DNA from: Escherichia coli
Lineage (GTDB): Bacteria; Pseudomonadota; Gammaproteobacteria; Enterobacterales; Enterobacteriaceae
Direction: 5' to 3' (one strand)
Assembly: GCF_003334335.1 (NCBI RefSeq)
Contig: NZ_QOWQ01000004.1
DNA length: 64,000 nt
Under the pieces are notes generated by a model. That model was given only the letters and a program-made list of their open reading frames with translations. It made no database searches and was not told where the DNA came from. A program made the translations under genes and the position numbers. Below, piece after piece: positions 10,111 to 53,550 of the stretch (positions are counted from its first letter, which is position 1; each line of letters starts with the position of its first letter).

Positions 10111-11154
10111 ATGCGTATTGAAGAAGATCTGAAGTTAGGTTTTAAAGACGTTCTCATCCGCCCTAAACGCTCCACTCTTAAAAGCCGTTCCGATGTTGAA
10201 CTGGAACGTCAATTCACCTTCAAACATTCAGGTCAGAGCTGGTCCGGCGTGCCGATTATCGCCGCAAATATGGACACCGTAGGCACATTTTCTATGGCCT
10301 CTGCGCTGGCTTCTTTTGATATTTTGACTGCTGTGCATAAACACTATTCTGTCGAAGAGTGGCAAGCGTTTATCAACAATTCTTCCGCTGATGTGCTGAA
10401 ACATGTGATGGTTTCTACCGGTACGTCTGATGCGGATTTCGAAAAAACTAAACAGATTCTCGACCTGAACCCGGCATTAAACTTCGTTTGTATTGACGTG
10501 GCGAATGGTTATTCCGAACACTTCGTGCAGTTCGTTGCGAAAGCGCGTGAAGCGTGGCCGACCAAAACCATTTGTGCTGGTAACGTAGTGACTGGTGAAA
10601 TGTGTGAGGAGCTTATCCTCTCAGGTGCCGATATCGTTAAAGTTGGCATTGGCCCAGGTTCTGTTTGTACAACTCGCGTCAAAACAGGCGTCGGTTATCC
10701 GCAACTTTCTGCGGTAATCGAATGTGCCGATGCTGCGCACGGTCTGGGCGGAATGATCGTCAGCGATGGTGGCTGCACCACGCCGGGCGATGTGGCGAAA
10801 GCCTTTGGCGGCGGTGCCGATTTCGTCATGCTTGGCGGCATGCTGGCGGGCCACGAAGAGAGCGGCGGTCGCATCGTTGAGGAGAACGGCGAGAAATTTA
10901 TGCTGTTCTACGGCATGAGCTCCGAGTCTGCGATGAAACGTCACGTTGGCGGCGTTGCGGAATATCGCGCAGCAGAAGGTAAAACCGTTAAGCTGCCGCT
11001 GCGAGGCCCGGTTGAAAATACCGCGCGAGATATTTTGGGCGGCCTGCGTTCAGCTTGTACATACGTTGGGGCTTCACGCCTGAAAGAGCTGACCAAGCGC
11101 ACCACGTTTATTCGTGTGCAGGAACAAGAAAACCGCATCTTCAACAACCTGTAA
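10111..11154 (+). CDS. guaC: GMP reductase GuaC
   Basis: 347 aa ORF recognised as IMPDH-family GMP reductase. Confidence 0.96.
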
Positions 11155-11160
11155 TCTCCC

Positions 11161-11190
11161 AACGCTGGCGTGGAGCAACACGCCAGCGTT
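11161..11190. terminator. Bidirectional hairpin between convergent guaC and hofC
   Basis: Inverted repeat aacgctggcgtg-gagcaa-cacgccagcgtt (approximate). Confidence 0.6.
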
Positions 11191-12391
11191 ATCCCATCCC
11201 ACTCATCGCATCGCCTAAATGGAAAATTGGCAGATACATTGCCACCACCAGCGTACCAATAATTCCTCCCGTTATGATCAGCAACGCCGGTTCCAGTAAG
11301 GCTGCGAGGTTATCCGCCAGCGCCATTGTGTTTTCCCGATGATGATGGGCGAGGTTGTCTAACATGAGATCCAGAGAGCCGGATGCCTCTCCTGTTCTCA
11401 CTAATTGCAAACAGAGCGGGCTAAACTCACCGGTATTTTTTAGCGCCAGCCAGATGGGTTGACCGTTACTGATATCGTGCTGGATTTGTGTCAGAAGTTG
11501 CACCCAGTACGGGCAGCGCATTGTTTCTCTGACGCTCTCTACGCCCTGTAAAAAAGTAATGCCTGCACTTTGTGTCAGCGCCAGAATCGTAAAGATCTGC
11601 GTGAGTTTTTGTCCCCGCATCAGTGAACCCATAATCGGGATGCGTAACAGCAATTTCTGCCGCACTATAAGCCAGGTCGGTCGGCGCATCAGCAACTTAT
11701 TGGCTATCGCCAGCAGAAAGCCGAACAACACCAGCAGCCAGCTCCATTCGCCACTAAAGTCTGCCAGCGTCATGATCCCCTGCGTTAGTGCCGGTAGTGG
11801 GGTGTTGAAGGTCTTATAGATAGCGGCAAACTCCGGCAGAACAAAATGCAGCATTGCCACAACCACCATGATTGCCATCGCTAAAATGATGATGGGATAA
11901 CGTAACGCTGATTTCACTTTGTCGGTCAACTGACGCTGGGCTTTTTGCTGACGCGCCAGTTCAAAGCAGCATTCATCCAGCTTACCGGTCAGTTCACCCG
12001 TGCGGATCATCGCCTGATAGAGCGGCGGAAATACCTCTGACCAGGGTAATAAGGCATTGGAAAAAGCAATGCCCTGTTCGAGATCGTGCGCCAGCGATTG
12101 CAGCAACGCTTGCCATTGCTTACTGGGATGCTGTTCCGCCAGCAGAGCCAGCCCTTCAGAAAGCGTTAACCCTGCTTTGAGTAGCGTCGCCAGTTGATGA
12201 ATGACTTCCGCGCTTTTATCTCCTCGCCACTGCGCAGAATTGATGGCGATTCGCTTCAGGCTTAGTGGGGTAACCATCTGTTGCTGTAGTGCCATAAGCA
12301 GTAAAGTACGGCTCTCTGCCCATAGCATCCCATCTTGCGCATTGCCGTCGCCGGTTATGCCATGCCAGCGCCAGAGTTGCTTACTCGCCAT
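11189..12391 (-). CDS. hofC: Type IV pilus assembly platform protein HofC (PilC/GspF family)
   Basis: 400 aa polytopic membrane protein; recognised. Confidence 0.95.
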   Translation of the reverse strand: MASKQLWRWHGITGDGNAQDGMLWAESRTLLLMALQQQMVTPLSLKRIAINSAQWRGDKSAEVIHQLATLLKAGLTLSEGLALLAEQHPSKQWQALLQSLAHDLEQGIAFSNALLPWSEVFPPLYQAMIRTGELTGKLDECCFELARQQKAQRQLTDKVKSALRYPIIILAMAIMVVVAMLHFVLPEFAAIYKTFNTPLPALTQGIMTLADFSGEWSWLLVLFGFLLAIANKLLMRRPTWLIVRQKLLLRIPIMGSLMRGQKLTQIFTILALTQSAGITFLQGVESVRETMRCPYWVQLLTQIQHDISNGQPIWLALKNTGEFSPLCLQLVRTGEASGSLDLMLDNLAHHHRENTMALADNLAALLEPALLIITGGIIGTLVVAMYLPIFHLGDAMSGMG

Positions 12392-13766
12392 GCGGCATCC
12401 CCAGTACGCGGATTAACTCTTCAAAGGTGGTTAAGCCTTGCTCTACGGCCAGGCAGCCGTTTTCAAAAAGCGTACGCATACCCGCCTGTCGTGCGTGCGT
12501 TTCCAGCGATTCAACGTCGGTATTAGCGGAAATAAGCTGACGAATGACCGGCGTTATGGGCAGAACTTCAAATAAGGCCGTACGACCATAAAAACCGTGG
12601 TAGCAATGTACACAACCGGGTGCCTGCCAGTGGGGCAGCGGCGATGGCCATACATTGTCTGGAATGTGGATGGGCTCCCCTTGCTGCCGGCGACAATGTG
12701 GGCAAAGTTTGCGTACCAGACGCTGGGCTATTACCAGCGTAAGCGCCGATGATAGCATCCAGCGGGCGACCCCCATTTGCTGTAAACGTACCAGCGTTTC
12801 GCAGGTGGAATTAGTGTGTAGGGTAGACAACACCAGGTGACCAGTTTGCGCCGCTTTAATAGCGATCTCTGCTGTTTCGCCATCGCGGATCTCTCCGATC
12901 ATGATGACGTCAGGATCCTGGCGCAATAACGCACGCAAAACGCCCTGAAAGGTGAGTCCGGCACGCGGATGGATTTGCGTCTGGTTTAGTCCGGCTATGG
13001 GGATCTCAACTGGATCTTCGACGCTACAAATATTAATGTCAGCGGTATTCAGCTTTTGCAGGGCACTATAAAGCGTGACCGTTTTGCCGCTGCCGGTAGG
13101 GCCAGTTACCAGCACCAGTCCCTGTGGTTGTTGCAAGGCATGAGCAAAGTCCGCCAGTTGTAACGGCTGCATTCCAAGCGTGTTGACATCCAGTGCCTGA
13201 CCCACCTGCTGTAACAACCTTAATACCACCTTTTCACCACCCCGACATGGTAAGGTCGCAATACGAAATGAGACGGCGTTTCCTGCCAGTTCGACAGTGA
13301 ATTGCCCGTCCTGCGGCAGGCGATGTTCCGCAATATCCAGGTTTCCCAGCACTTTTAATCTGGCGGTTAATGCGACTCCGGCATCCGGTGAAACATCCGG
13401 TAAAGGATGCAATACGCCGTCGATACGCAAGCGGATGCGGTAGGCATTGTCCGCTGGTTCGATATGAATATCAGACGCGCGTTGTTCCAGCGCAGATTGT
13501 AACGTTCGAGTTAGCAACTCTGCTTTGGGCTGATGCTTCTCCTGAACAGCTACGGGCAATGTCTGTTGTGTGCGACTGGCGTGACCTTCCATTTGTTGGC
13601 GCGTCCAGCAGGTGATCTCAATACGTTTGGTGGTAGCGAAATGCAATGCGTCCAGTAGCTCATGCGAAGGTGCATCGACTACCGCAACATGAACCACCTC
13701 TTCGCTGGCATCCAGCAAGACTCCATGATAACGCAGACACAGGGCAGTGAGCTGTGGAATATTCAT
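12381..13766 (-). CDS. hofB: Type IV pilus assembly ATPase HofB (PilB/GspE family)
   Basis: 461 aa; Walker A GPTGSGKT; 11-nt overlap with hofC. Confidence 0.95.
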   Translation of the reverse strand: MNIPQLTALCLRYHGVLLDASEEVVHVAVVDAPSHELLDALHFATTKRIEITCWTRQQMEGHASRTQQTLPVAVQEKHQPKAELLTRTLQSALEQRASDIHIEPADNAYRIRLRIDGVLHPLPDVSPDAGVALTARLKVLGNLDIAEHRLPQDGQFTVELAGNAVSFRIATLPCRGGEKVVLRLLQQVGQALDVNTLGMQPLQLADFAHALQQPQGLVLVTGPTGSGKTVTLYSALQKLNTADINICSVEDPVEIPIAGLNQTQIHPRAGLTFQGVLRALLRQDPDVIMIGEIRDGETAEIAIKAAQTGHLVLSTLHTNSTCETLVRLQQMGVARWMLSSALTLVIAQRLVRKLCPHCRRQQGEPIHIPDNVWPSPLPHWQAPGCVHCYHGFYGRTALFEVLPITPVIRQLISANTDVESLETHARQAGMRTLFENGCLAVEQGLTTFEELIRVLGMPHGE

Positions 13767-13775
13767 TGCCGCTCC

Positions 13776-14216
13776 TTAGTTGGCGTCATCAAAGCGGAAG
13801 ACATCTTCGCAGGCTTGCTGCAATGCGCTGTCACTTTGAATATTGCAGTTGCGCGTCCAGCCGGTGACGCCGTTTGCGTTATCCCAACCCGGTGTCATGA
13901 CGACGCTTAGCCCATTGAGACTTTCTTGCCCGGTCAGCGACACCACGCCCTTTGCCACACTCATGGCTGAAACATAGCGGGTGGTGGTAGGCGAGGGAAT
14001 GCCATTGCTGCCACCGTCGCAGGTATCTAATCCACCATGTTCCAGCGCGCACAACTCTACGGCGGTACGGTAAGGCACAAAGGTTTGTAGCATGTCGGTG
14101 AGTGCGGCTTTGCGCAGGTAGTTTTGATAAGCGGGAATACCAATGGCGCTTAAAATGGCAATGATGCCAATAACCACCATCAGTTCGATAAGTGTAAAAC
14201 CGCGTTGCTTGTCCAT
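13776..14216 (-). CDS. ppdD: Prepilin PpdD (type IV major pilin)
   Basis: 146 aa; prepilin N-terminus MDKQRGFTLIELMVVIGIIAIL (G|F cleavage site, N-methyl Phe). Confidence 0.95.
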   Translation of the reverse strand: MDKQRGFTLIELMVVIGIIAILSAIGIPAYQNYLRKAALTDMLQTFVPYRTAVELCALEHGGLDTCDGGSNGIPSPTTTRYVSAMSVAKGVVSLTGQESLNGLSVVMTPGWDNANGVTGWTRNCNIQSDSALQQACEDVFRFDDAN

Positions 14217-14418
14217 CTGTTTCGCTCCTTGATTTGGTTGGCGCTACTTTGGCAAACGCCATCAGCACAGGCGAGGGGCAAAAAACGAAACGGGAAAGCA
14301 GATTCCGAGGTTTTTTATTTCGTTGCAGCGAAAGACAAGAAATTTGCGAGGCGTTACGAAGAAAGTTGGGGAAGGGGAGATTATCCGCCCGCGATGGAGC
14401 GGATAAATCTGTCAACTA

Positions 14419-15372
<954 letters not shown>

Positions 15373-46381: not shown

Positions 46382-47620
46382 TCAGGGATAGGTTACCTGG
46401 AAAGTACTGGTGGCTTTAAATTCGCCGGGTTCGATAGCAATATTCCCGTCTTGCTTTAATGTTGCCTGGAAATGAAGAGGCTGTGATGTGCCGTTACCTT
46501 GATTAGGGTAAACCCCATCGGAGGTGTCATCTTCGGTTTCATAATCTATATAAACAGAATTCGTATCATTAGGTTTTAATGTCATTAGCGGATTTTTACT
46601 GGTTGCTAAACCTTCAATGAGTACGCCAACGCCTTTGGCGGCAGTGCTTCCAGTAAGCGTATTACCAAGCAGTTGTGTGTTTTGAGTACCTACTTTTCCA
46701 GTGACGAGTTTTGTTTCAATATTACGCACACGAATACAATTCTGAAGCGAGATATCAAAGGGAACAGGTGAAGCGCCATTTTTAATTGTCCCAGAGCTAT
46801 ATTCTCCCATTCTAACCGTTGAACCATTGACTGATGGCCCGGTAAGTATGGAGGTAAAACATGTTGGTAAGGTTAATTTGACATTATTCAGTGTGAAATT
46901 GACATAAATGTGGTTGCTGTGATCTACAACTTTTGTACCAGGACTGTAGGCCTTAAACGAATAAAGGTAATTTGATGAACTGGATAACTGGACTTGCTGA
47001 TTAAGTGTAGGATCGAAATTAGTATCTGTATAAAATTCAACAGTTATGTTGTGTACTATACCACCAATAGCCCAAAACTTATCGTAGTCGTCTGCTTTGT
47101 TGCAACCCTTAGTTTGTAGATCGCTGTCTGTGACGGAAAAGAAAAATTCTTGGTTGGAAGGATCTCCGATATAGATTCCTGGCGATTGAATGTCAGTTAT
47201 TGTATCGTATGCAGACCAGACCCTTGATATTAACATGGTGTAATACAGACCAGGAACAGATGTATTAAATAGTTTATGTCCGCCATAATCTTTACCTGAA
47301 TAGACCATGGCATTTTCAATAGTTATTGGACCAGGATTCGCTCTGCCAGATGTATTGCAGTAAAGAATACCACCACCGGTACCTGTATCCAGGTATGACC
47401 AGTACATTTTTACCCCAGTCGGGCCGAGCTGCGTGGGTTTATAAAAAACCAAGTTGCTTGCTGTTGATGTGTAATTAAAGGTCATCTGTGCGGCAGTGGA
47501 GGGGCCTCGATAGTTATCAACTCCTGCATTATTTCCCACAATAAAACTTGTATATGCACTGACTGTATTACAACAAGAATACAGTGCTAAAAAAAGAATG
47601 TACCTGAAGATAGTCTTCAT
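46382..47620 (-). CDS. yadC: Fimbrial tip adhesin-like protein YadC
   Basis: 412 aa; signal peptide; C-terminal fimbrial subunit ending ...FQVTYP. Confidence 0.92.
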
Positions 47621-47669
47621 TTTTACTCCAATGTTTCTTTATTGTTATGGTTTGCGCTGTTTTTGTTTG

Positions 47670-48266
47670 TTATTCGTAGTAAATATCCACTAACACATGG
47701 CTCATAAGTTGACCAGATGTAACACTCAATGCAGGATCGATTTTTTGCATTCGGGTGCTAAATTTCCAGGATGAACCATTCATGTCATCCGACATTACTG
47801 GATAAACGGAACGAGATCCGCCTGAAGCATTAAGAACATTGAATGTATTCGCCGAATCCTGAGTAGAAAATATAACTACTCCTACATTACTTGCTCCTGA
47901 CGAAATTTCATTAGCAAATATTTGCCTAGAGCCAGCAGCCATGACACCGCTAAGGGCTCTAAAATCAATATGTAACTGATTTAGCACATCGCCAGTTCCC
48001 TGTAATGCACAGTCGGATACAGTGATAGTGAACTCTTTTCCACCTGGTTGATAACTTTCAGGAGTAACATTACCTGAAAAATATCCCACCCCAACGACGC
48101 CAAGATCAATATTACCCTGGTTACTGATTCCGCTTTTGCAGGTGCTGTTTTTTACATTGGCAACAAGGTCAATATCCTGTCCAGCAATGGCTGGACAGGC
48201 GATGCAAAACAGTAATGACAGAAACAGAATTATTCTCTTCATCAGCTTACGTTGAGTGGGATGCAT
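47670..48266 (-). CDS. yadK: Fimbrial subunit YadK
   Basis: 198 aa; signal peptide; C-terminal ...VDIYYE. Confidence 0.9.
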   Translation of the reverse strand: MHPTQRKLMKRIILFLSLLFCIACPAIAGQDIDLVANVKNSTCKSGISNQGNIDLGVVGVGYFSGNVTPESYQPGGKEFTITVSDCALQGTGDVLNQLHIDFRALSGVMAAGSRQIFANEISSGASNVGVVIFSTQDSANTFNVLNASGGSRSVYPVMSDDMNGSSWKFSTRMQKIDPALSVTSGQLMSHVLVDIYYE

Positions 48267-48292
48267 ATATAGTTCCTGAATCTGTAAGTCTG

Positions 48293-48898
48293 TTAGTTAT
48301 AGGTTACTGTAAATGTGGCTGGTGCAGAAAACTTACCCGCAGTGACATTGTTTACGGTTTTATTTTTTTCCACGACCAGGCGTGCACTCATCGGATAATA
48401 AACGACCGCATTGGCTGCAGTGGAGATTGTTACCTCTTGTGATGCTGGTGTTACACAGCTAAATTGTGTTGCACTCCCTGTTGCCGGAGTTACAGTGCTC
48501 CAGACTTCAACGGCGACAGCACTTGCTTTATCTGCGGCTGTGGAACCATTTGCAAACCCCGCACCGTCATTAGCAGTTCCCTCGCATGTGGCTCGCTTGG
48601 TTAATTTTATTTGCGCTTTTTTATTGGGGATACCCGCACAGTCTTTGAATTTGAGTTTGAATGTTTTTACTTTGGTCTTGGCATTGATTTCAGAAATATA
48701 TACATCACCAAAATCAACAACAGAAATGTCCTGATCAGAGTCATTTACTAATGTAGCGGTACAAGTACCCATTTCTACAGTAGTAATAACGGTCAGTCCA
48801 ATACTGTCTGTTGCCGCATAAGAGAGTACGCTGAACAATGAGGCAGCCAAAACGACACTGCTGGATAATCCATAACGTAAATTTTTAAATGTCATCAT
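48293..48898 (-). CDS. yadL: Fimbrial subunit YadL
   Basis: 201 aa; signal peptide; ends ...TFTVTYN. Confidence 0.9.
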   Translation of the reverse strand: MMTFKNLRYGLSSSVVLAASLFSVLSYAATDSIGLTVITTVEMGTCTATLVNDSDQDISVVDFGDVYISEINAKTKVKTFKLKFKDCAGIPNKKAQIKLTKRATCEGTANDGAGFANGSTAADKASAVAVEVWSTVTPATGSATQFSCVTPASQEVTISTAANAVVYYPMSARLVVEKNKTVNNVTAGKFSAPATFTVTYN

Positions 48899-48909
48899 AA
48901 TTATCCTTC

Positions 48910-49479
48910 TTATTGATAGATGAAATTAAACGTCGCCAGTGCACGAAAATTCCCCGGTACGCCTTGCCCTGCATCTGTTTCACGTAGCGCAACGGTCATT
49001 TCAAGACCCTTATCGGGCTGCATCTCGTCTGTGCTCCAGCGTATCTTTTCCGCACTGTTAGGTTTAAGGAAAGTGGCATCATCAGTAGTCCGTTTTTTGA
49101 AACCCATACCGATATTACTTGTCGTCGAAGATGAATCACCAGACTGCGGTATAATAAGCTTAGGTGAGCTTGATGATGCATTTCCGGTCAGAGTGGTATC
49201 AATCCAACTGATGCCACTGCTGCACCCACTGGCAACCAGTTTAAAATCAGCCTGAGATTCTGTCGTTTTATTCGCGATCTTATCCAGACCCATCTTAGGG
49301 ATTCTCAATGTGTAGTTATTATTGCCATCATTCGTGACGTTATTACCAGTAAGTGTGATGTTACAGGTTGTCGCTTTGACAGTGGCTGTAAACTCTACAT
49401 TAATATCCGTTGCAAATACTGAGGGTGATAATAATATTCCCATCAGTATCACTATTTTATGTGGCGTTGTTTTTATCAT
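48910..49479 (-). CDS. yadM: Fimbrial subunit YadM
   Basis: 189 aa starting MIKTTPHKIVILMGILLSPSVFA; ends ...TFNFIYQ; track ORF extends 14 codons upstream. Confidence 0.88.
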   Translation of the reverse strand: MIKTTPHKIVILMGILLSPSVFATDINVEFTATVKATTCNITLTGNNVTNDGNNNYTLRIPKMGLDKIANKTTESQADFKLVASGCSSGISWIDTTLTGNASSSSPKLIIPQSGDSSSTTSNIGMGFKKRTTDDATFLKPNSAEKIRWSTDEMQPDKGLEMTVALRETDAGQGVPGNFRALATFNFIYQ

Positions 49480-49495
49480 TTGACGTCCCTTGTAG

Positions 49496-52093
49496 TTACT
49501 GAATCTGACACCGAATTCCATTCAGAATAATAGATTGTGCTATTTTTTCTGCTTCTGGGCTTTGTTGATAATGCGCAAGACAACTTACGGGTTTACTTTG
49601 TTCGAGCCATTTAATGCTGATATTTCCCTGCTGCTCAATACCACGAACAAATGCTTGTCCACCCTGTCCAACATTACCAATGACATTGCCTTGCTCATCA
49701 TAAATATCTGCAGCAAATGGAATATTTTTACCATCACTTCGTGTGATGTTCATAATGGCTGATTGCCCTTGCACGGTTTCAAAATCAGCAAAGACGACTG
49801 AACCCTGACGCGGTACAGCTACTGCACTGGTACTTTTTAATTCAACATCGTTCTCAAGATCGTTGATATCCAGCGCGATACGGTTTTCATGATAAGGAGA
49901 AAGAGCGCTGGTGACACCATAACCCCATCGATCGATAGTACTGTTGCCATAATTTATTCGCGCTCCTTGAGCACCTGGAGCCTGAACTACCGCCAGTGTA
50001 TCGGAGTCGCTAAAACTATCATTACTGAAAGTCAGTCCACCGCTATGCAATACAAAACCACCGTCGGTGCTGAGAGAAACTTGACGGCTGTTATCGCTAT
50101 TTGCAGAAATTGAACCTGCCAGCGTTCCCCATGGTGACTCATAGCTGGCATAACCCCCAACATAACTCAAATCTTTGCTGGCTTTATTCATCGTATAGCC
50201 AGTATTCACGCTATAACTGACGCGAGCGTTATCGCTATAGCCACTGCTGCTAACGTTGAGTTGGTTATTACCCTTAAAGTCACTGCTTATTTGAGTATCA
50301 ATACTCTGGAAACCTGAAGTACGTTGTTCAGTGCCAAGTAATTTTTCAATTGGAATGGTGAAACTAAGATAAACGCTATCGTCAGTGTCGCCGTCTTCAT
50401 TCCATGAACGCTGGGCACTGACACTGTAGCTGCCCCAGGATGTACTGTTACTGTAGCCAATAGAGTAATTGCTACGATTTTGTCCGGAAGCCCAGTAATC
50501 GGACCAACTTCCGGAAAGATAAAATGAACCGTAATCTTTTTTCTCAAATTTCAACGGTTGGTTAATACTGACCGTAACCTGATTTTTCATGCGTGAGTAA
50601 TTACGCATGGATTTCGGTTCAAGATCTTGTTCGGGATGTTTCACTTCATCAATTAGAGTTAGTGCATCATTAAGACCAAGGTAATTCTGTGTCGAATAGC
50701 GATAGGCCGCGATATTCAGTGAAGTACTTGTTTCTTCGAATAACTTGTTCCAGGAAACACGATAACTTTGCCCCTGGTATGTTTTATCATCCGGGATACG
50801 AACATTGGAATGAGTCACATCGAAAGAAAATGCACCAACTGAAGTATTCAGACCAAGACCTAACAAACCAGCGGTATAGTTATTATCGGTTATCTGAATA
50901 CCGGTATAACCCGTCAGATAGTTATTCAGGCCGTAGTAGTAGCTTGCTTGAAATAAATTAGGCTCATCCTGAATATCATCTTTTAAGACCTGACCGCCGC
51001 TAATATCCCAACGTCCAACGCCAGGGCGTAACATTTGAACAACGGATGAGAAAGGTTGCGAGAATGTCCGCTTTGAGCCATCGGATTCTTCGATGGTAAC
51101 AATAAGATCGCTGCCGTACCCTGACGGACTCAGATCATCAATGACGAAAGCGCCTGGCGGCACCGTCGTTTCATAAATCTTATAGCCACCTTGCGTAATA
51201 GTGACTTTGGCGTTGGTATTGGCAACGCCATGAATGATAGGCGCAAAGCTGGCTAAAGTCGGAGGCAACATGCGGCTGTCACTGTATAAACGAATGCCTC
51301 GGATACTGACGGAATCAAAGGTTTCGCCCGTCGTATAAGACTCACCAAGAATGAGTTGAGAACGCAGCGAGGCGATATCACGCTGAACATACCGATTCTT
51401 AAAATCATAATTACTGCCAGAATCGGTCATCCAGTTGTAGTTGCCCGAGGCACGCAGTCGCCATGCACCTAAATTCATCCCACCGTTAAATGCAGCATAA
51501 ATGCTTTCATTTTTTCGACCAGGGGTTTCACTATGATATCCGTTGAGGTTGTATGACAACATGGCCGCATTAATGCCGTTTTCCCATAACGATGGATCAA
51601 CATAGTTTTGGTAATTTTTCATTACCCAGGCTTGAGGAACGTCTATATCCAGACGTTGATCGTTAACGTCATAACGAACAGAAGCCTGAGGGATAATTTC
51701 CGTCAAATTGAGGCAATTGCCGAGCGTTTCATCCCTGGCAAGCAGAACGGCTTTTTCGTTATTTATATCGGGAGAATTAATATGAAACTGCAATAAATTC
51801 TTTAATGTGATACAAGCCTGGGCGTTCTTTTTTCCTTCAATTGCGACAAATGTAATACTTTGGTTAATGATTGGTTGGTCGTTTACATAAACACTGACGT
51901 CGTAAACACCCGGTATAGCGGGGTTACCTTCACTGTACCGGCTGAGATCAATATTAGATGCATTCTGCCCCATCAGGAAGGTATGGTCATATTCAACGAG
52001 TTCAGCACTGAAAGCAGTATTGCAATACAGCAGCGCGCAAAACGTGGCGATACGGGTCAGATGATGATAATTTTTAGTATATTCTATAGTCAC
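49496..52093 (-). CDS. htrE: Outer-membrane fimbrial usher HtrE
   Basis: 865 aa usher protein recognised. Confidence 0.96.
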   Translation of the reverse strand: MTIEYTKNYHHLTRIATFCALLYCNTAFSAELVEYDHTFLMGQNASNIDLSRYSEGNPAIPGVYDVSVYVNDQPIINQSITFVAIEGKKNAQACITLKNLLQFHINSPDINNEKAVLLARDETLGNCLNLTEIIPQASVRYDVNDQRLDIDVPQAWVMKNYQNYVDPSLWENGINAAMLSYNLNGYHSETPGRKNESIYAAFNGGMNLGAWRLRASGNYNWMTDSGSNYDFKNRYVQRDIASLRSQLILGESYTTGETFDSVSIRGIRLYSDSRMLPPTLASFAPIIHGVANTNAKVTITQGGYKIYETTVPPGAFVIDDLSPSGYGSDLIVTIEESDGSKRTFSQPFSSVVQMLRPGVGRWDISGGQVLKDDIQDEPNLFQASYYYGLNNYLTGYTGIQITDNNYTAGLLGLGLNTSVGAFSFDVTHSNVRIPDDKTYQGQSYRVSWNKLFEETSTSLNIAAYRYSTQNYLGLNDALTLIDEVKHPEQDLEPKSMRNYSRMKNQVTVSINQPLKFEKKDYGSFYLSGSWSDYWASGQNRSNYSIGYSNSTSWGSYSVSAQRSWNEDGDTDDSVYLSFTIPIEKLLGTEQRTSGFQSIDTQISSDFKGNNQLNVSSSGYSDNARVSYSVNTGYTMNKASKDLSYVGGYASYESPWGTLAGSISANSDNSRQVSLSTDGGFVLHSGGLTFSNDSFSDSDTLAVVQAPGAQGARINYGNSTIDRWGYGVTSALSPYHENRIALDINDLENDVELKSTSAVAVPRQGSVVFADFETVQGQSAIMNITRSDGKNIPFAADIYDEQGNVIGNVGQGGQAFVRGIEQQGNISIKWLEQSKPVSCLAHYQQSPEAEKIAQSIILNGIRCQIQ

Positions 52094-52127
52094 GCTATGC
52101 TTCCTGCGGAATTATATCCTTGCCTGA

Positions 52128-52868
52128 TTACAGCCTGGCATTACCTTCAATTGCGCCACCAAAGTCATTAATGGCGTAAAAATGCACTTTTGCAGAATTC
52201 GCTTTGCCATTAAGGCCATTGACTTTCATGACCTCATCACTAAATGGTGCAATCATTTTCACATCAATCGGATAGCGTTTACCGCTAGCTTCTAAATCAC
52301 CACTGCTAAAAGAGACGTAGTAAGGGGTTGGATTGGTCACTCGTAATGACGCCTTACCTTCTGAACCTGACCAGAACCACTTCAGGGCTAACGGGGCTTC
52401 AGAGGGATTTCCCTTCAATCCATCCGGGCGATAGAAAAGTTTTATACGTGTGCGAAATGCCAGTTGCAGCAGGCTTTGATTCGCGACCTTTTCTGCATCT
52501 GGTTTTGGTGGAACTTCCAGTACGTTAAACCAGAACACGCTCTCTCTGTCTTTAGGCAGTGAGGTGCTGGCTGTGTACATTAATTTGATTGTTTGCCCAC
52601 GTTTGGCATCAATACGCGATACTGGCGGCGTAGCAGTAAAAGGGACTGTAATACTGCCAGGCTCAGCGTTGTCATCGCCAGTATCTAACCAACTCTGGAC
52701 AAGCAACGGGTTATTCCCTTTATTTTCCAGACGTACGTTGACACTTTTTTGATCGCTTTTATATATTACGCGAGTACCCGAAATGACAATGTCCGCAATA
52801 GACGATGAACTAAAAGCCATACAGGTTACGAAGCATAAAGCTGTTGTATGTTTGGTGTTAAAAAACAT
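52128..52868 (-). CDS. yadV: Periplasmic fimbrial chaperone YadV (EcpD)
   Basis: 246 aa PapD-like chaperone; signal peptide. Confidence 0.95.
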   Translation of the reverse strand: MFFNTKHTTALCFVTCMAFSSSSIADIVISGTRVIYKSDQKSVNVRLENKGNNPLLVQSWLDTGDDNAEPGSITVPFTATPPVSRIDAKRGQTIKLMYTASTSLPKDRESVFWFNVLEVPPKPDAEKVANQSLLQLAFRTRIKLFYRPDGLKGNPSEAPLALKWFWSGSEGKASLRVTNPTPYYVSFSSGDLEASGKRYPIDVKMIAPFSDEVMKVNGLNGKANSAKVHFYAINDFGGAIEGNARL

Positions 52869-52965
52869 AAACCATCCCTGATAGAGTTAATTAAAACAGG
52901 GAATAATATAAAATAGAAATTATTATTCCCTGTATATTCATTCAATCAATTTAACTGGTGAATAC

Positions 52966-53550
52966 TTACTGATAAGTAATGGTGTATGCAGTGTTAGTTT
53001 TTACATAACCAGCAGTTGCTGTTTGGTCTGCGACGGCACGAACGTAAGACGCTTTAAAATCATAAACAGCAGATTTTGTCGTTGCATCCAGGGCTTTAGT
53101 ATACACATCGCCAGGGTTGTTAATTTGAACCTGTTTGATAGTGGAACCATCAATATTGTGTAGAGCGATATTAACGCCGTCAGATGGGTTGTTAATAGAC
53201 ATGTCGTTGTTCAAAGTCCCTTTGCTGTTACCAAAGAAAACAGAACCGAAGGTCATTTTAGCCGTGCTACCTGGATTCGGATTTGCTTTGCTGCAGTCAA
53301 CGGTGATGCTGAAAGGTTTAGCTTTAGCGCCAACGGTGTCATTCAGTACGCCAGCATCGATTTCACCAACGGTTGCGGTTTGCAGCAGGATCAGACCATC
53401 CTTGTTACCGCCGTCAACGCGGGTTTCACAGGTGTTATCAACAACCAGACCACTGATATTTAACTGACCGCCGTCCATATCAGCAGAAGCAGTACCTGCA
53501 ACCATCGCCAGCATAAGACCAGACAGGGCAAAACCTAATTTTTTAGACAT
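52966..53550 (-). CDS. yadN: Major fimbrial subunit YadN
   Basis: 194 aa; signal peptide [23 protein letters not shown]; ends ...YTITYQ; first gene of the operon. Confidence 0.93.

Follow-up and report, generated by a model that had tools for sequence, protein, structure and literature searches.

In other gamma-proteobacteria, for example Haemophilus influenzae, Vibrio cholerae and Pseudomonas aeruginosa, pilABCD operons carry the genes for a pilin, a PilB-type ATPase and a PilC-type platform protein in this order, with coaE-zapD-yacG downstream. We analysed a stretch of 64,000 nucleotides (nt) of the Escherichia coli contig NZ_QOWQ01000004.1, the whole of which is called the window below, and in which the three-gene operon ppdD-hofB-hofC shows the same arrangement; in enterohemorrhagic E. 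coli (EHEC) O157:H7, the same genes at the same locus are known as hcpA-hcpB-hcpC and belong to the hemorrhagic coli pilus. The evidence makes it very probable that this operon supplies the core of the type IVa (competence-type) pilus encoded on the E. coli chromosome, and that it is controlled by Sxy through a CRP-S site and maintained. The operon itself, its regulation by Sxy and CRP-S, the structure of the pilin and the role of the pilus in EHEC have already been published, and every E. coli genome has the locus annotated. The finding is real but ordinary and of little weight as a discovery, and the additions made here are modest, namely the selection figures, the invariant gene junctions, the position of guaC in the slot of pilD and an upstream module shared by ppdD and ppdA. 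The three open reading frames (ORFs) in the ORF list are as follows.

11189..12391, minus strand: hofC, PilC/GspF-family inner-membrane platform protein, 400 amino acids
12381..13766, minus strand: hofB, PilB/GspE-family hexameric assembly (extension) ATPase, 461 amino acids
13776..14216, minus strand: ppdD, type IVa major prepilin, 146 amino acids

We found that the window equals positions 103334-167333 of E. coli MG1655 (NC_000913.3) apart from nine single-nucleotide polymorphisms (SNPs), none of them within 11189-14430, and that the three ORFs are exactly hofC (b0106), hofB (b0107) and ppdD (b0108) of that strain. This exact match to the MG1655 annotation, together with scores above the cut-offs of the respective equivalog models, bears out the gene identities and the gene order given by the initial annotation, and both hallmarks that it named, the prepilin N-terminus GFTLIELM and the Walker A motif GPTGSGKT, are present in the translations. 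PpdD scored 269 bits against the NCBIfam equivalog PRK10574 (cut-off 138) and 35.9 bits against TIGR02532 (cut-off 16.3), and contained the Pfam domains N_methyl (4.7e-10) and Pilin (5.6e-4). Its N-terminus has the properties of a class III signal peptide, with a basic leader of six residues, MDKQRG, ending in Gly at position -1 and followed by FTLIELMVVIGIIAIL, which has F at +1 and E at +5 and begins a hydrophobic N-terminal helix; four cysteines are located at positions 56, 66, 124 and 136. The mature K-12 pilin is identical to the chains of PDB entries 6gv9 and 6gms ('Prepilin peptidase-dependent protein D') except for one residue, mature position 114, which is T in K-12 and A in EHEC. Entry 6gv9 comprises 14 chains and 140 residues and is a cryo-electron microscopy filament model of the EHEC pilin; by analogy with this near-identical pilin, the PpdD encoded in the window can be expected to polymerise into a filament.

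HofB (823 bits against the equivalog PRK10436, cut-off 617) contains a T2SSE ATPase domain (Pfam, 1.3e-146), with the Walker A motif at residues 222-229 (window 13103-13080), an Asp box at 250, a Walker B box at 287, a His box at 308 and CxxC motifs at 355 and 385. In 13 Escherichia/Citrobacter species, the Walker A motif, the core of the His box and all four cysteines did not vary, and the only differences in the Asp and Walker B boxes were I/V exchanges. HofC (661 bits against PRK10573, cut-off 401) has two T2SSF domains (Pfam, residues 64-186 and 269-388), as is typical of a platform protein. The best PDB matches were PilB proteins for HofB and Myxococcus PilC for HofC (1.7e-44). HofB fell below the cut-off of the PilB equivalog TIGR02538 (485.8 bits versus 675.65), the match covering model positions 160-561; its N-terminus is about 100 residues shorter than that of canonical PilB, with a weak and partial MshEN match. 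Since HofB and HofC are below the curated cut-offs of both PilB/PilC and GspE/GspF, we assign them to an enterobacterial lineage of their own.

In most E. coli genomes, the label given to hofB by RefSeq and its Prokaryotic Genome Annotation Pipeline is 'gspE, type II secretion system protein GspE'. This call, the good matches of HofB and HofC to the GspE and GspF profiles (457.6 and 263.7 bits) and the assembly of PpdD by the Klebsiella Pul secreton, which Sauvonnet is said to have described in 2000, would be expected if hofB and hofC were type II secretion components serving protein secretion and not pilus assembly. However, both scores lie under the curated cut-offs (630.25 for GspE and 424 for GspF), and HofB scores more on the PilB model than on that of GspE. 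A genuine gspC-O operon with its own GspE, GspF and GspG is located elsewhere in the genome (the true gspE at MG1655 3458339-3459820), whereas hofB and hofC lie directly behind a true pilin gene with a Pilin domain, in a locus that is syntenic with pilABCD-coaE and has no gspC, gspD, gspL, gspM or pseudopilin genes as neighbours. A role in type II secretion is thus barely credible, and calling HofB GspE, as RefSeq does, is misleading, a naming artefact, because the real gsp operon is elsewhere and HofB misses the GspE cut-off.

Evidence for the control of the operon was found upstream of ppdD, in the region where the initial annotation had suggested that sites of the CRP-S type be sought; the site located there is already in the literature.

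14342..14363 (core 14345-14360), minus strand: CRP-S site TTCTTCGTAACGCCTCGCAAAT, centred 136 nt upstream of the ppdD ATG

The site consists of a strong half-site, TCGCA, and a weak one, TTCGT, and 8 of the 10 positions of its core match the TGCGA-N6-TCGCA type. Support for it comes from where it lies, from its conservation and from binding data in the literature: the site is within the fragment bound by CRP in electrophoretic mobility shift assays (primers in PMC1635313), in which Cameron and Redfield observed weak but specific binding (PMC1635313). Its strong half-site is conserved across the orthologous intergenic regions of Escherichia and Citrobacter, and in four distant loci, with HofC 37-46% identical, the core matched at 8/10 positions in L030, centred 132 nt upstream of the pilin ATG, and at 9/10 in the other three, centred 135, 125 and 183 nt upstream. 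The 10-mer GCCTCGCAAA, which comprises the strong half-site and its flank (14343-14352, minus strand), has a single occurrence in the window and is found again, in the same orientation, 136 nt upstream of sxy (L039), exactly the distance found for ppdD, and 140 nt upstream of ybaV (L037), while simple half-site scoring upstream of hofM, smf and yhgH gave no convincing sites.

The published expression data agree with the statement of the initial annotation that the operon is poorly expressed in K-12. The ppdD transcript was undetectable in lysogeny broth until Sxy was induced, upon which it rose about 90-fold in a manner dependent on CRP and cyclic AMP (cAMP), the induction being abolished in crp and cyaA backgrounds (PMC1635313). 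Induction of ppdD was confirmed by quantitative reverse-transcription PCR and western blotting, with processed PpdD produced upon sxy induction, and the pilin was undetectable in K-12 and in E. coli reference collection (ECOR) strains without artificial expression of sxy (PMC3330819). CRP-S promoters show activation of the class I type (PMC1635313, PMC6728893), with direct contact between CRP and Sxy (PMC6728893). The silence of the ppdD promoter in ordinary culture would be due to the CRP-S nature of its CRP site, which has one good and one weak half-site; such a site is occupied and activated by cAMP-CRP only if the co-activator Sxy (TfoX) takes part, the activation being class I-like.

Of 5426 complete E. 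coli genomes, 5412 carried the 5.5-kb locus at a coverage of at least 80%. Ratios of nonsynonymous to synonymous substitution (dN/dS) and amino-acid identities were determined for the three genes and for the flanking housekeeping genes nadC and guaC.

Mean pairwise dN/dS within E. coli: ppdD 0.11, hofB 0.087, hofC 0.115, nadC 0.029, guaC 0.023
dN/dS, K-12 versus other Escherichia: ppdD 0.041, hofB 0.080, hofC 0.101, nadC 0.037, guaC 0.012
Amino-acid identity to Citrobacter: ppdD 90%, hofB 75%, hofC 73%, nadC 89%, guaC 94%

Against other Escherichia and Citrobacter, the dN/dS of the operon ranged from 0.03 to 0.10, and over all time scales from 0.03 to 0.12. The identity of PpdD between the two genera, with a dN/dS of about 0.03 (comparisons with L018-L023 and L025), is at the level of NadC and far above that of its own assembly proteins. 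Judged by these ratios, ppdD-hofB-hofC is clearly under purifying selection, suggesting an operon that is conditionally used and not decaying.

Several observations weigh against this picture of a maintained, Sxy-controlled pilus operon. The E. coli alleles inspected were 10 loci of the 5,426 genomes, strain 74-2 not being a random pick, and 8 of the 10 were intact; in the others, hofB was disrupted by an internal stop (E. coli DFS.1, L011) and ppdD by IS903B in its 5' end (E. coli 74-2, L013). Frame shifts in hofC, possibly an assembly error, were present in the long-read sequence of Citrobacter amalonaticus AUH_CA_2023_1 (L025), and within E. coli the housekeeping genes on either side have about a quarter of the operon's dN/dS. 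On its own, the CRP-S pattern shows no enrichment in the window, where 29 matches at two mismatches or fewer compare with 43.6 expected, and pattern counting was for this reason dropped in favour of conservation and position. A scan of 10900-14700 with the sigma-70 consensus gave no promoter, so that the promoter could not be placed by consensus, and two different candidates fit the conserved blocks. As to function, induced sxy leads to very little DNA uptake, for which the only genetic link is to hofQ; spontaneous plasmid transformation does not need ppdD, and sxy has no known natural inducing condition in E. coli.

Some E. coli records contain fused HofB-HofC ORFs of 596-674 amino acids. The hofB stop in DFS.1, the IS903B insertion in 74-2 and such fused or truncated ORFs in the databases are what one would expect to see if the operon were an evolutionary relic, unexpressed, slowly decaying and without current function, and the same may be said of the loss of the peptidase gene from the locus and of a constraint within E. 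coli that is weaker than on guaC and nadC. However, dN/dS remains within 0.03-0.12 throughout and the pilin is 90% identical between genera. In addition, the ORFs, the 9-nt gap and the 11-nt overlap between them, the Shine-Dalgarno sequences and the catalytic motifs were intact in 12 of 12 other species (Escherichia and Citrobacter loci taken from a species-genome collection), a hofC frameshift being possible in one of them; the CRP-S site is conserved as well, and both the transcript and the processed protein are inducible. Because selection is purifying, the pilin is conserved between genera and the knock-outs are sporadic and not spreading, we rejected the relic hypothesis, which now seems highly improbable. 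The initial annotation had named a lack of transcription combined with frameshifts or truncations in other isolates as the outcome that would speak for decay and against conditional use, whereas a Sxy-induced transcript, processed pilin and purifying selection were found.

We propose that the three genes are co-transcribed from a weak, activator-dependent promoter and translated as a tightly packed unit, ppdD giving rise to the major prepilin, hofB to the cytoplasmic extension ATPase and hofC to the inner-membrane platform. The prepilin would then be cut, and presumably N-methylated, by GspO or PppA, which are encoded elsewhere; HofB and HofC, together with the alignment proteins HofMNOP, the minor pilins PpdA, PpdB, YgdB and PpdC as well as the secretin HofQ, would polymerise PpdD into a fibre, for which YggR is the candidate retraction motor. 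The dominant physiological role of this fibre may be DNA uptake, for food or for recombination, or adhesion. Expression of Sxy allows low-level, hofQ-dependent DNA uptake, which is detectable only with lambda Red recombination. In the literature read, the evidence for the link to uptake of DNA as a nutrient that the initial annotation had drawn comes from hofQ and not from ppdD, hofB and hofC themselves, and no direct test of any of the three genes in a Sxy-dependent uptake assay was found there.

Pili in pathogenic strains, also mentioned by the initial annotation, are likewise borne out, hcpA of EHEC being ppdD (PMC2920817). EHEC makes HcpA (PpdD) pili in Minca medium, for which adherence, invasion, biofilm, twitching and cytokine-induction phenotypes have been reported (PMC2920817). 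These adhesion-related phenotypes, and the tiny DNA uptake measured after sxy induction, could mean that the same machine has been selected for adhesion, biofilm formation and host interaction, as the name hemorrhagic coli pilus implies, with DNA uptake as a side effect. However, the operon belongs to the Sxy/CRP-S regulon beside homologues of DNA-processing genes (PMC1635313), and sxy and ybaV, the homologue of comEA, have the same half-site motif with the same spacing in their upstream regions. Furthermore, an identity of 90% and a dN/dS of 0.03 would be unexpected for a pilin acting as an adhesin that is exposed to pressure from the immune system or from phages. We consider selection for adhesion somewhat unlikely on balance, and retain the reading of a competence-type pilus. 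The locus thereby bears on the old question of why E. coli keeps a full competence-type pilus machine whose natural use has never been seen: since selection maintains the genes and the pilin is constrained like a housekeeping enzyme, a natural condition that induces sxy must exist and has yet to be discovered.

The initial annotation had described the operon as a complete minimal set and had noted that the window lacks a secretin, a prepilin peptidase and a retraction ATPase. None of these three is indeed found in the annotation of the entire window, and the core set is present; the completeness does not stand, as the three genes supply 3 of the approximately 13 proteins used to reconstitute the pilus. 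Other pilus parts are encoded at four other places of the MG1655 genome, namely hofMNOPQ, ppdA-ppdB-ygdB-ppdC, gspO, and pppA with yggR; because of these, ppdD-hofB-hofC is a core and not a complete minimal set. HofQ reached the PilQ cut-off and YggR that of the PilT family, and GspO and PppA carry Peptidase_A24 domains. The peptidase, the PilMNOP-type complex, the secretin, the minor pilins and the retraction ATPase that make up a whole machine are all present in the genome and all outside the window. PpdD pili have been made in E. coli with an assembly set of twelve genes for which those named here form the basis; according to the literature, then, the unlinked parts cooperate with HofB and HofC.

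The neighbours of the operon give a clue to its ancestry.

10111..11154, opposite strand: guaC, converging on hofC, from which it is separated by a 34-nt gap
14419..15312, same strand as ppdD (minus): nadC, upstream of ppdD at a distance of 202 nt

The adjacency to nadC asserted by the initial annotation is thereby verified, and ampD and nadC lie upstream of the pilin operon in most loci. The homologue search with HofC returned only close enterobacterial relatives, and the distant loci used for synteny came from a representative search. In the distant relative L035 (HofC 36% identical), the order is pilin-T2SSE-T2SSF-Peptidase_A24-CoaE-ZapD-YacG, all on one strand, whereas in E. coli and its enterobacterial relatives (40-46% identity) it is pilin-T2SSE-T2SSF-(guaC reversed)-CoaE-ZapD-YacG. 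On the opposite strand, guaC therefore occupies exactly the slot of the prepilin peptidase (window versus L035, and L033, L034 and L036), and no peptidase is linked to the operon because guaC sits where pilD used to be, which explains the 'missing' peptidase. The guanine-plus-cytosine content of the operon is that of its neighbours. From these sequence comparisons, we regard the operon as vertically inherited and as the counterpart of pilABCD of other gamma-proteobacteria.

The junctions between the genes and the hairpins at both ends of the operon are listed below.

12381..12391, minus strand: hofB/hofC overlap of 11 nt (ATGGCGAGTAA), invariant in 12 other Escherichia/Citrobacter loci
13764..13778, minus strand: stop codon of ppdD, gap of 9 nt and start of hofB (TAAGGAGCGGCAATG), with the gap invariant in 12 other loci
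14225..14230, minus strand: Shine-Dalgarno sequence of ppdD, AAGGAG, invariant in 13 species
11161..11190, both strands: perfect inverted repeat of 12 bp around a loop of 6 nt, filling the guaC-hofC gap
14378..14410, minus strand: stem-loop just after the nadC stop, free energy -16 kcal/mol, z = -2.65

The 11-nt overlap reported by the initial annotation was recovered at 12391-12381; it is consistent with translational coupling of hofC to hofB, and the Shine-Dalgarno sequence of hofB overlaps the stop codon of ppdD. All three ORF lengths are unchanged in the 12 other loci, except for the one frameshifted hofC. No internal terminator was predicted in the operon and the 9-nt gap between ppdD and hofB leaves no room for one, from which we infer that ppdD-hofB-hofC is a single transcript with translational coupling. 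The hairpin between guaC and hofC has free energies of -23.9 and -24.5 kcal/mol on the two strands, without a U tract, and was kept in all related loci, although its sequence varies. The stem-loop at 14378..14410 probably marks the 3' end of nadC; an insert resembling a repetitive extragenic palindrome was present in this interval in 3 of 7 Citrobacter loci (L018, L019 and L023). A scan of 10900-15500 against Rfam at E values up to 1 gave no match.

Between the CRP-S site and the Shine-Dalgarno sequence of ppdD, the two promoter candidates and the conserved blocks are arranged as follows.

14300..14327, minus strand: candidate core promoter, with the -35-like TGCAAC (14327-14322), a 16-nt spacer and the -10-like GAATCT (14305-14300)
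14246..14274, minus strand: alternative promoter TCGCCT-17-TGcCAAAGT (14274-14246), better conserved among close relatives
14240..14294, minus strand: conserved blocks CCCGTTTCGTTTTTTGCC (14294-14277), CTCGC and GTTTGCCAAAGTAGCGCC (14257-14240), between the CRP-S region and the Shine-Dalgarno sequence

Transcription from TGCAAC-16-GAATCT would start near 14292 and would put the centre of the CRP-S site near -60.5/-61.5, a class I geometry, whereas the alternative promoter would put it near -114. The motif TGCAA[AC] was found 25 or 26 nt downstream of the CRP-S centre in K-12 and in three of the four distant loci. The blocks in 14240-14294 are invariant or nearly so across Escherichia and Citrobacter and may represent the alternative core promoter, an UP element or a leader signal. 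Two structural candidates in this region were discarded: a conserved leader RNA structure, for which RNAalifold on 13 species gave -7.2 kcal/mol with almost no covariation, and a terminator-like hairpin at 14291-14307 on the plus strand, which was not significantly stable as RNA (z = -0.78).

We found that the upstream regions of ppdD and ppdA share a module of about 67 nt, comprising TTCTTCG-N2-ACGCCT, CTGCAACG at an identical offset of 35 nt, TAAA and CGGAA (minus strand 14300-14363 of the window against L027, MG1655 2964178-2964360, which lies upstream of ppdA). The local alignment score was 33, versus 17.8 +/- 3.0 for shuffled sequences, and none of 2000 shuffles reached 33; nearer to the start codon, both regions also contain a T-run and, after it, CCTCGC. 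Based on this module, the common T-run with CCTCGC and the spacing of GCCTCGCAAA, the determinants of Sxy-dependent activation might extend beyond the 22-bp CRP-S site, a tentative idea that we rate as rather unlikely; ordinary constraints on promoter and leader, or common ancestry, could account for the shared blocks just as well. If the blocks were functional, they could represent, for example, a contact of Sxy with DNA, a dedicated core-promoter architecture or a leader element, and would help to explain how Sxy chooses its promoters.

Elsewhere in the window, the nine single-base differences from MG1655 are at positions 16754, 22859, 28629, 30864, 33394, 42626, 56038, 59845 and 61080. Seven are synonymous, in ampE, aceF, acnB (two), yadE, gluQ and hrpB, and two alter residues (YacC Q64L and HrpB D770A); the excess of silent SNPs suggests a close relative of K-12 that has diverged naturally, and not laboratory mutagenesis. 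A second surface-fibre locus of the silent type is also located in the window, namely yadN-yadV-htrE-yadMLKC (46382-53550, minus strand), a fimbrial operon of the chaperone-usher kind, which is unrelated to the type IV pilus genes.

Compared with the pilABCD operons, the E. coli locus differs in having guaC in place of pilD, in the HofB N-terminus, shorter by some 100 residues than that of PilB, and in the unusual conservation of PpdD, while its CRP-S/Sxy control resembles that of pilA in H. influenzae (PMC1635313). The type II secretion core of GspG, GspE and GspF shares with it the protein superfamilies, a piston-like assembly principle and significant profile matches, but the proteins of the pilus locus score below the respective cut-offs, GspC, GspL, GspM and minor pseudopilins are absent from the locus, and the real gsp operon (MG1655 3455578-3466220) lies away from ppdD. 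In relation to EHEC O157:H7, where pili were reported in Minca medium (PMC2920817), the difference is one of expression, K-12 and ECOR strains having given no detectable pilin without artificial sxy expression. The regulatory kinship is with the Sxy (TfoX)/CRP-S regulon, of which ppdD is a founding member with nothing that sets it apart: it has the CRP-S site and the induction dependent on Sxy, CRP and cAMP, and shares GCCTCGCAAA and a spacing of about 136 nt with sxy and ybaV, and the upstream module with ppdA.

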